Shown one piece after another: positions 43,901 through 46,900 of a DNA stretch of 64,000 nt. Both the position numbers and the translations under genes were made by a program. The stretch's first letter is position 1, and each line of letters opens with the position of its first letter. The stretch comes from Flaccisagitta enflata (Eukaryota): assembly GCA_965153355.1 (NCBI GenBank), contig OZ231126.1, forward strand, positions 6,138,001-6,202,000, given 5' to 3'. A model generated the notes under the pieces. That model made no database searches. It had not been told where the DNA came from and worked only from the letters and a program-made list of their open reading frames with translations.

Positions 43901-46900
43901 TGGAGAAGTTGACGAAAAAGTTCGGGATGCGCCAAGAGACCGCGTTGGAAATGCTTGACGAAGTGCTGCAGGGAAAAGCGATCGACGAAAAAGATCACAA
44001 CGGAATGCTCGATTTCTACGCGCGGTTGATGAGCGTCCACTCGTTCGCAACCGAGACGAAAAAGGCGGACGACTTCGAGAACAAGTTGGTGGTCAAGACG
44101 ATCGTCGAGAAGAAGCTTCCCTTCCTAAAAGATAAGTGGGCAAAGAAAGTTGTGAGGTATAGGAAGAAAAATGGTTCAGATTTGAAATTTGCTGATTTTC
44201 TTGATTTCATTGATGAAGAGCAAACCATATCTGAAATGTTGTCAGGATACCATCGCAACAACAATCAAAACAAGCCCGCTGCATCGGCCAAAATTTCCGC
44301 GACGACCGCCAACGCCGCCGCAAAGAAGGACGCGATGCCGACGCCGGCTTCAAAAACGACGCCGGGCCTCTGTCCTCGTTGCGACGGAAAACACGGTCTA
44401 GCGGATTGCCCCACTTACAGCGAGATGAACGCGTCGGACCGCCGGAAATTCAACAAAAACTTGGGCATCTGCTTCAGATGCCTTGAAGGAGGCCATCTCG
44501 CCAAGGCATGTCCGTCGACGATCACTTGCGACAAGTGCAACGGCTTCCATCACCCTCTAGCGCACCCGGAACCTAACCCGGCGGGAAAACAAACTGTTGA
44601 AAACAAAGACGCCGGCGAAAAAGGATCTGGGCCTGCGTGACATGAGGCGCCTTCGACCAACTCCGTCTTCAAAGTTGGCGGCGACGACGGAGCGTGGAGG
44701 TTGATCTTGCCGCTGTACATAACGAATGGTGAAAGAAAAGTCAAGACTTTTGCTTTGATGGATGGCGGCGCCAACCGACACATCGTGTCGAAGGACTTAT
44801 GTAAAAAATTGAAACTAAGTGGGAGGAAAACGACGATGACGATAACCACCCTTGAGAAGATGGTGGAGGGAGAGAGGGAAGTGGCGGATGTGGTAGTTGA
44901 AGGTACCAACGGCTACAGGATCACTCTCAATAACGCCATCTTCGGGGAGATAATCGCATCGAAGGACGACAGACCACCACGCGCTGAGGATGCCGCCGGG
45001 ATGGAGCATCTCGTCGACCTGGAATTTCCTGCATTTTCGGATGGCGACGATGGATGCTCTATCGGCGTAATAATCGGCGCGGAGCACGCTCGAATCTGGA
45101 TCGGCGGAGAGACATATAAAGGCGCCGAGGGGCTGCCCATGGGAATTTCCACGCCGCTCGGCGCCGGTCTGATCGGCCCTAGAAACAACACTGACTCGCG
45201 ATATTTTGTTTGCAATTTTGCTTCCTTTCACAGCATTGATTCAGATTTGGCAAAAACCATAAAAAGAATAAATGCCGGTGAATTTGAAAAAGTGGACGAA
45301 AATAAGCGAGATATGTCTCTCAGTGATAAGTTTGCCATCCGCCAAATGAAGGAGGGCATTAGGTGGGATCCGAAAACGGAACACTACCGGACCCCTGTCC
45401 TTCATAAAGGTGGAAGGCAAGCAACTTGCGATGCACTAAACAATTTGGATTCTCCAACGATGGCCCTAGACCGCTTATTTCGGCTGAAAAAACAATTAAT
45501 GCGGGACCCGGAAAGGCGCCGAATAACTTTCGAAACTATGGCAAAATTCTGGGAAAAAGGGCGCGTGAGGAAAGTAGATCCAAATGTGCACGCCAACATG
45601 CCACCAGATCGACCTAGATGGACAATTCCGATCCATGTGGCGGACAAGCCCGGTAAGCCCGGGCAAGTCCGCATCTGTCACGATTGCAAAGCAGCAGTGG
45701 GTGGATCAAGCCTTAACGACCAGCTCTTGGACGGACCGCAACTTGCCAACGACATCAGAGGCGTGTTGATGCGCTTCCGGTGTGAAGGTCCCGTCGCCGT
45801 GGGCGCGGACATTAAGGATTACTTCCACGAGATCTATGTCACCGAAGAAGACGCAGGACTTTTCCGCTATTATTGGTTTCGCGATGAAAAAATGGAGGAA
45901 ATCGACCTGAACGAGTTTCTCGGCCACGTCTTCGGTGCAAAATCATCAAATTGTGTAGCGATCTTCACTCTGCAACACCACGTGGAACAGCACTCGGCTG
46001 AATATGGCCCTCTCGTGGTTCAAGCAGTGATGAGGAACATGTACATTGATGATCTGATAAAATCACTGCGCAATACCAAAGTGGCTAAAGACTTTCGCGT
46101 GGGCATCACGGCCGCCCTCGAGGACGCCGGCATGAATCTGTGCAAGTGGAGATCAAGTCATCCGGAAGTTCTTGAAGGCGATACGACGGATCCGGCGCCG
46201 GCGGCGCCAATGGATGTATCCGGCGCCACTGATGACACGACGAAATTGTTAGGCCTTAGATATTCTTTTTCTGCCGATGCTTTTTCCTTTTTGCCAGATA
46301 AATCAAAGGCCGAATTGAATGTGCAGACCAAAAGACAAATGCTCAAATTAATAGCGTCTATATTTGACCCGCTGGGTTTTTTGGAGCCATTCGTGATTTG
46401 GGCAAGGCTAATTCTGCAAAAAGTGTTACGCGTCGTCGAAAGTTGGGATAGCAAAGACATTCCAACCGTGTCCCTCAACGAGTTTGTGGAATGGCAGGCG
46501 AGCTTCAAATTCTTGGAGTCTTTCCGCATCACGAGATGGACGGCGACGCCGGAAACGCAGGACGGCAAAAAGGTCCTCCACGGGTATTCGGATGCGAGTG
46601 GACGGGCGTATGGAGCCGTGTACTACGTCCGCTACGAGGGTCCAAATGGCGAAATCCATGTGTCCATCGTATGCTCCAAGTCGCACGTCGTCCCTCTGAA
46701 GGATGTGGAGGCGGGTCACATGGAGTCGACGCCACGCTTGGAGCTTCAAGCAGCACGCCTCGCGGCCAGAATGCGCGCCACCATTATTGAAGAAACAGGG
46801 AGTTATGATGGTTATGTAAATTGGACCGATTCTGAATGTGTAATTAAGCAATTAAATGACACTGAAACAAGGTTCAAGGTTTACTTTGCAAATCGTCTCT

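Follow-up and report, generated by a model that had tools for sequence, protein, structure and literature searches.

A conserved in-frame UGA between gag and pol in a clade of BEL/Pao retrotransposons, a probable site of programmed readthrough

The element and the stop between its gag and pol

The 64,000-nucleotide stretch of Flaccisagitta enflata DNA analyzed here (contig OZ231126.1, positions 6,138,001 to 6,202,000; hereafter the window, with its first letter as position 1) belongs to a host genome of 794 Mb in 9 contigs and carries a complete retrotransposon with long terminal repeats (LTRs) at 41297-51478. Its gag and pol occupy one reading frame and are separated by a single TGA, which is conserved throughout a deep clade of relatives. 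The LTRs differ at only 2 of 552 sites, indicating a recent insertion, and are flanked by a 5-bp target-site duplication. Pol comprises protease, reverse transcriptase (RT), RNase H and integrase in this order, the protease motif coming first, with Pfam matches over the cut-off to PF05380 (114.5 bits), PF17921 (33.5) and PF18701 (70.6) and a weak match to PF00665 in the integrase region. The element is a BEL/Pao LTR retrotransposon (Belpaoviridae). It shares with this family (genus Semotivirus) the LTRs of 0.2-1.2 kb around gag and pol, the target-site duplication, three zinc knuckles, the domain order and the family-specific domains PF05380 and PF18701. It departs from the layout described in the ICTV profile, where gag and pol form one continuous or two overlapping genes (PMC8742986); here both share one frame with a single stop between them, in all 22 clade members backed by DNA.

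A first-pass annotation of the window, which had proposed stop-codon readthrough stimulated by a pseudoknot, gave the junction letters and positions exactly: GCG at 44635-37, TGA at 44638-40, then CAT GAG GCG in frame. The stop lies just past the zinc knuckles, as had been stated, 24 codons beyond the last of them and 41 codons ahead of the protease Asp, and the frame behind it is open for 1343 codons. The gag frame of the window copy is interrupted by several small indels at about 42980-43350, and full Gag is not producible from this copy itself; sister copies have 919-928 open codons. Because of this broken frame, the gag stop was judged on relatives. The indel cluster, found despite near-identical LTRs, could be a local assembly error instead of decay. 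In the stretch after the 5' LTR (41849-41890) there is no TGG at the start and the first one comes about 22 nt in, so that the primer-binding site may be unusual.

A sense codon in other copies, which the annotation had named as a refuting result, does not occur. A DNA search gave 30 close loci, the window being one, and all 30 carry the TGA. When a protein search was read through the site, 146 of the 150 listed matches had it and one did not span the site; the other three are decayed copies with frameshifts, in which the translation appears to be that of the letters around the TGA in another frame. Among 91 distinct junction contexts the TGA is in frame in 89, the other two having local indels. 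It is present in 20 of 20 copies of subfamilies at 49-69% identity and in 11 of 11 more distant loci, which were selected in a family search for the size of their pol frames, irrespective of the codon (L118, a gapped fragment of a fused family, was excluded). Metagenome loci were examined at the junction in 19 of 27 cases, yielding five with the stop, seven fused and seven too decayed; in the remaining eight the match begins downstream of the junction. Among viral contigs, 13 pattern matches included no relative. Three other BEL/Pao families of the same genome run for 1732-1865 codons across the same boundary without a stop.

The distribution of the stop follows the phylogeny. In a tree of RT-RNase H (61 rows, 484 columns, IQ-TREE, midpoint root; P0027 excluded), a single branch of length 0.93 with an SH-like approximate likelihood ratio support (SH-aLRT) of 100 unites 37 rows, composed of all 22 rows with a DNA-shown stop, five of them from metagenomes, and 15 database proteins without Gag. 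All eight rows known from DNA as fused gag-pol fall outside. The best protein matches all carry PF05380, and the tree was built without a named reference element or an outgroup from another superfamily. A second protein search was headed by 23 proteins, which all come from metagenome assemblies and lack a knuckle; the score then drops, and below the drop named animal proteins appear and 75 of the 97 other matches have a knuckle. The 23 were assigned to the clade by score and not by placement in the tree. The highest values for named animal relatives are about 39% identity and 310 bits. All 38 clade proteins in the database are Pol without Gag.

Features of the retrotransposon in the window
Feature	Coordinates	Strand	Remarks
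5' LTR	41297..41848	+	552 bp, TG...CA; 2 mismatches to 3' LTR
Target-site duplication ATACA	41292-41296 and 51479-51483		upstream of 5' LTR and downstream of 3' LTR
gag	41944..44637	+	weak PF03564, below cut-off
Three zinc knuckles	~44371-44565	+	within gag
In-frame gag stop TGA, +4 C	44638..44644	+	TGA CATG in the window copy; proposed readthrough site
Constrained synonymous block	44641..44703	+	near subclade only; candidate stem-loop inside
pol	44641..48669	+	1343 codons without stop; protease, RT, RNase H region, integrase
Protease Asp	44761-63	+	within pol
pol stop TGA, then CTA	48670..48675	+	in frame with ORF3; candidate second readthrough site
pol-ORF3 linker	48673..48927	+	U-rich, 85 codons, open in pol frame
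Pyrimidine tract	ending in AG at 48737	+	inside linker; splice-acceptor-like
ORF3	48928..50883	+	own conserved ATG; no Pfam family
ORF3 core domain	~49258-49764	+	modelled integrase-core-like (RNase H) fold; low-complexity charged tail after
3' LTR	50927..51478	+	

Context of the stop and candidate RNA structure behind it

In 21 lineage representatives, both the TGA and a C at +4 are invariant, TGA-CT occurs in 15 and TGA-CTAG in 11, and the stop is preceded by a GCR codon in 16. For comparison, TGAC makes up 10.5% and TGACT 1.3% of 2773 off-frame stop triplets in the same pols. The lineages are related and therefore do not represent 21 independent draws; even between the nearer subfamilies, however, synonymous sites show differences of 0.44-0.61 per codon, and the peptides on either side cannot be aligned. 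Distant lineages end pol with mixed stops, none of them TGA-C. The leaky UGA-C context to which the annotation had pointed is common to all lineages sampled. According to passages of PMC3159437, UGA-CUA is the readthrough consensus of alphaviruses and several plant viruses, and excerpts of PMC4132726 report readthrough at UGA-CUAG in four vertebrate genes. The clade agrees with this motif across its lineages. In the window's subclade (6 of 21) the TGA is followed by CAT or CAG and not by CT, the window site being UGA-CAUG. The clade-wide conserved signal is the short context UGA-C(UAG), and not an RNA structure.

In the subclade near the window element, the nucleotides behind the stop are constrained. 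Codons +1 to +20 show 8 synonymous changes against 17.6 expected (two disjoint pairs, z -3.3); this segment ranks 15th among 1583 overlapping windows, and the lowest window of the whole alignment also overlaps the junction. The annotation had drawn here an H-type pseudoknot like that of murine leukemia virus (MLV), with stem 1 at 44648-62/44673-83 and stem 2 at 44663-67/44686-90. Its letters are exact (CGCC 44648-51, CCAACT 44657-62, CCGTC 44663-67, AGTTGG 44673-78, GGCG 44680-83, GACGG 44686-90), every pair is intact in the window copy, and 95.7% of cells pair among 17 distinct near sequences. The pairing of the CGCC/GGCG extension holds up in farther subfamilies too, at 94-97% of cells; one sequence there has one two-sided change. 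Among controls, crossing Watson-Crick helices of 6 and 5 bp turn up in only 1.5-3% of cases (pol windows, 2 of 71; synonymous recodings, 6 of 400; shuffles, 10 of 400), which makes the pattern moderately uncommon without being rare as a chance event.

The pseudoknot as drawn is nevertheless unlikely to be the stimulator, a judgement that concerns the stimulator and not readthrough itself. In 7 of the 17 near sequences stem 1 has lost its central A-U pair without compensation, and in nine farther sequences with the same stop only 73.3% of cells pair (57% in the stem 1 core, 76% in stem 2), stem 1 being broken in most of them. Stem 2 can be lengthened to a helix of 7 bp, in competition for the same bases. 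With the extension, 2 nt would have to span an 11-bp stem, which we judge sterically implausible from general pseudoknot geometry; without it, the structure begins 16 nt and not 7 nt past the stop. A conserved pseudoknot 8 nt after a UAG, as in MLV, is thus not what the clade has, the stop being TGA throughout, though such a structure may still apply to the window's own subfamily.

A nested stem-loop (44649-54/44696-701, 44661-67/44686-92, 44674-77/44682-85), chosen after seeing the data, includes the second stem of the pseudoknot. It pairs in 98.6% of near-set cells with seven one-sided compatible pair types, and RNAalifold recovered both inner helices together with another outer one. The folding stability of the junction region is no better than that of shuffles (z -0.02, -0.04 and -1.31). 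A covariation analysis of the kind the annotation had called for gave no two-sided change in the near set for the pseudoknot or for the stem-loop, and neither beats column shuffles. A hairpin seems likelier than the pseudoknot; the second stem probably survives within a hairpin that starts about 8 nt after the stop. The stem-loop is a candidate that fits the near-subclade constraint at least as well as the pseudoknot and is likewise unproven.

Readthrough and its alternatives

Programmed readthrough of the UGA is, in our estimation, the best explanation of the clade-wide stop, and from the sequence evidence a highly probable one. Most ribosomes would halt at the single UGA between nucleocapsid and protease and release Gag, while a minority would insert an amino acid there and continue to Gag-Pol, by which the Gag:Pol ratio would be set. 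The ancestral signal would be the short context UGA-CU(AG). In the window's subclade the context would have drifted to UGA-CAU/CAG, with the next 60 nt under nucleotide-level constraint; the simplest account of this constraint would be a 3' stem-loop that begins some 8 nt past the stop and might compensate for the weaker context. The earlier proposal that readthrough sets the Gag:Pol ratio is therefore retained in part: the conserved stop in a leaky context supports it, its MLV-like pseudoknot is given up, and readthrough itself we infer.

Several observations weigh against this reading. The window's own UGA-CAUG is only the minimal UGA-C motif. Synonymous constraint after the stop is absent in a farther subfamily (10 changes, 10.8 expected), and the stem-loop is not unusually stable, has no two-sided covariation and is equalled by 307-351 of 500 column shuffles. 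The tree comes from a quick search only and is midpoint-rooted. The RNA data were uninformative: one raw-read run gave 42 reads, nearly all partial on low-complexity stretches and none at the junction, from which no conclusion was drawn. In the Ty1/Copia element Tca2 of Candida albicans, which likewise has gag-UGA-pol and a predicted downstream pseudoknot, the junction gave no readthrough in a reporter, according to passages of PMC2194720; here, however, the context is the animal UGA-CUAG motif across a deep clade.

Tca2 is also the precedent (same passages of PMC2194720) for taking the UGA as the true end of gag, with pol made by a non-canonical bypass or from a separate message through cis- or trans-splicing or an internal promoter. 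It would agree with this that 17 of 21 lineages have an AG whose end lies 3-6 nt past the stop and that one RNA contig starts at 44635. A splice acceptor fails, however, because the first AG after the stop ends at +3, +4, +6, +10, +16, +20 or +38, in different phases, and because the upstream 30 nt are purine-rich (7-53% pyrimidine). A separate start of pol fails as well: the lineages have no Met position in common, and in 9 of 21 none precedes the protease active-site motif. The ATG at 44642-44 is ruled out as such a start, being out of frame and closing at 44702-04. Furthermore, the stop is without exception an in-frame TGA, a constancy that would be unneeded if it were spliced out. Weaker evidence on the same side comes from three thin RNA contig sets with a junction bin depth of 1-7, where no joint crosses the junction among the 24 of 208 pieces listed (substitution rows: 40 of 528 listed); contigs cannot show the absence of splicing, or strand. 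A 370-nt skip listed inside ORF3 was disregarded, since one side of it consists of 21 letters of low-complexity sequence. Overall, we hold a separate message or bypass to be distinctly improbable.

The constancy of TGA would also suit a reassigned code in the host or a selenocysteine at this site, either of which we consider very remote. Reassignment fails on codon usage in the window pol, with 28 TGG and no TGA; in addition, the fused families run through their 1732-1865 codons without TGA, and several pols end in TGA. Against selenocysteine, an Rfam search over the element, selenocysteine insertion sequences included, gave no match at E up to 1. An inherited nonsense mutation in a non-autonomous lineage, for which one could cite the broken gag of the window copy, has next to no probability and was already refuted by the copy survey, since the TGA is found in all lineages of a deep clade whose pols are open for 1300+ codons under near-saturated synonymous change; the recent insertion also speaks against it. 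As the annotation had argued, no random nonsense mutation accounts for the in-frame TGA at 44638-40; it is real, conserved, clade-defining and in a leaky context.

Programmed readthrough of this UGA would have close parallels elsewhere. The fission-yeast Ty3/Gypsy elements Tj1, Tosmo1-3 and Tcry1 likewise have an in-frame TGA between gag and pol, followed by a conserved CTA or CTG, and the stop of Tj1 is needed for transposition according to passages of PMC10085805. They belong to another superfamily and kingdom, and the codon before their stop is GAA, whereas here it is mostly GCR (16 of 21). In MLV an in-frame stop between nucleocapsid and protease also sets the Gag:Pol ratio, but through UAG, an 8-nt spacer and an essential pseudoknot (sections of PMC3159437), in contrast to the UGA and the pseudoknot not conserved across the clade here. 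Alphaviruses and vertebrate genes with UGA-CUA(G) share the stop, the 3' context and an enhanced synonymous conservation 3' of it, as in the near subclade; the constrained region is typically 100-200 nt there (PMC3159437), as against about 60 nt here in a subclade mostly without CUAG.

A literature search returned no description of gag-pol readthrough in BEL/Pao, with the surveys of Gao et al. 2003 and Havecker et al. 2004 outside its coverage. None was found in passages of PMC3118150, PMC2774666, PMC6238403, PMC13524379, PMC13517186, PMC554778, PMC12440569, PMC2678813 and PMC5009743. The mechanism is known from MLV and from fission-yeast Tj1/Tosmo, and the gag-UGA-pol layout from Tca2; in BEL/Pao we found it undescribed. 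The 2003 survey may list the silkworm BEL/Pao element Kamikaze with a gag-pol stop, in which case the present clade would be a clade-wide case of a layout noted once.

A possible second leaky stop and the meaning of the layout

The end of pol resembles that of gag. It reads GCG TGA CTA at 48667-75, and the frame is then open for 736 codons. TGA CTA is found in 30 of 30 close loci, 27 of which have an open 85-codon linker. In the near clade, pol ends GCR-TGA-CTA/G in 15 of 15 loci. The 240 nt that follow are free of in-frame stops in 14 of these, and in 12 the frame continues into the ORF3 core, over linkers of 426-828 nt. For the divergent U-rich linkers the chance of an open frame in shuffles is 0.01-0.03 each, except for two low-complexity ones. 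A sister family has a homologous ORF3, a pol end without TGA-C and linker stops in 9 of 9 scored loci. Two linkers (L098/L099; L098:7197-8025) contain a long CCT-type repeat encoding polyproline; that of L098 is in frame over 828 nt, with no stop in the pol frame against 10 and 12 in the other frames. The deepest-branching member of the clade (L124:7163-9601) has a different downstream ORF of 813 codons in another frame, which aligns poorly to ORF3. The second junction may be a second readthrough site, or it may reflect a spliced message, which could explain part of the open linker frame because ORF3 starts with its own conserved ATG and a pyrimidine tract with an AG at +65, a strong acceptor-like site, occurs in 5 of 8 linkers tested.

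The ORF3 core was modelled with AlphaFold2 from seven sequences (mean pLDDT 59.8; 70-90 over most of the domain), and the model compares best with retroviral integrase cores (Z 8.6, rmsd 4.0, 130 aligned), integrases filling all 14 top rows. A Z of 8.6 is just above the level of a common arrangement, and an integrase-core-like fold is predicted. Foldseek returned nothing at E up to 0.001, integrase cores appearing at 0.003-0.01; a sequence search of PDB gave one match (E 0.26), and the ESM Atlas gave no usable match. By eye, the acidic catalytic positions are not kept, for which reason the core is presumably inactive. It could be a duplicated, dead integrase domain.

We tentatively suggest, at somewhat less than even confidence, that the window's subclade uses a two-step cascade of leaky stops, gag-UGA-pol-UGA-ORF3, yielding Gag, Gag-Pol and rare Gag-Pol-ORF3, with UGA-CUAG exchanged for a 3' RNA structure at the first site. 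Gag-Pol-ORF3 would join integrase through a hydrophobic linker to a second integrase-fold domain that is probably catalytically dead. A precedent for the second junction is soybean SIRE1, a plant Copia element, from which the present one differs in that ORF3 is not env-like in the model and both junctions would leak. In SIRE1 the stop lies between pol and env. Passages of PMC2194720 name it among retroelements with an in-frame stop at gag/pol or pol/env.

Elsewhere in the window, two short MITE-like elements (32715-33133 and 62975-63436) have terminal inverted repeats of 42-43 nt that are 100% and 95% complementary, and there are tandem repeats of about 162 nt (30651-31550) and about 72-75 nt (35076-36143), the latter within an open frame of 355 codons on the minus strand.

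Should the second junction leak too, the element would have two readthrough steps in one retroelement message, of which we know no other case, although no dedicated search was made. Annotation pipelines would call such elements broken and list Pol without Gag. The clade is active in this genome, with 100+ copies and near-identical LTRs, and its divergent lineages, standing beside fused-ORF families in the same genome, offer a natural comparison of what UGA readthrough needs, and perhaps of how RNA structure can take the place of the CUAG motif. Readthrough at the gag stop would add a third gag-pol strategy to BEL/Pao, fixed across a deep clade.
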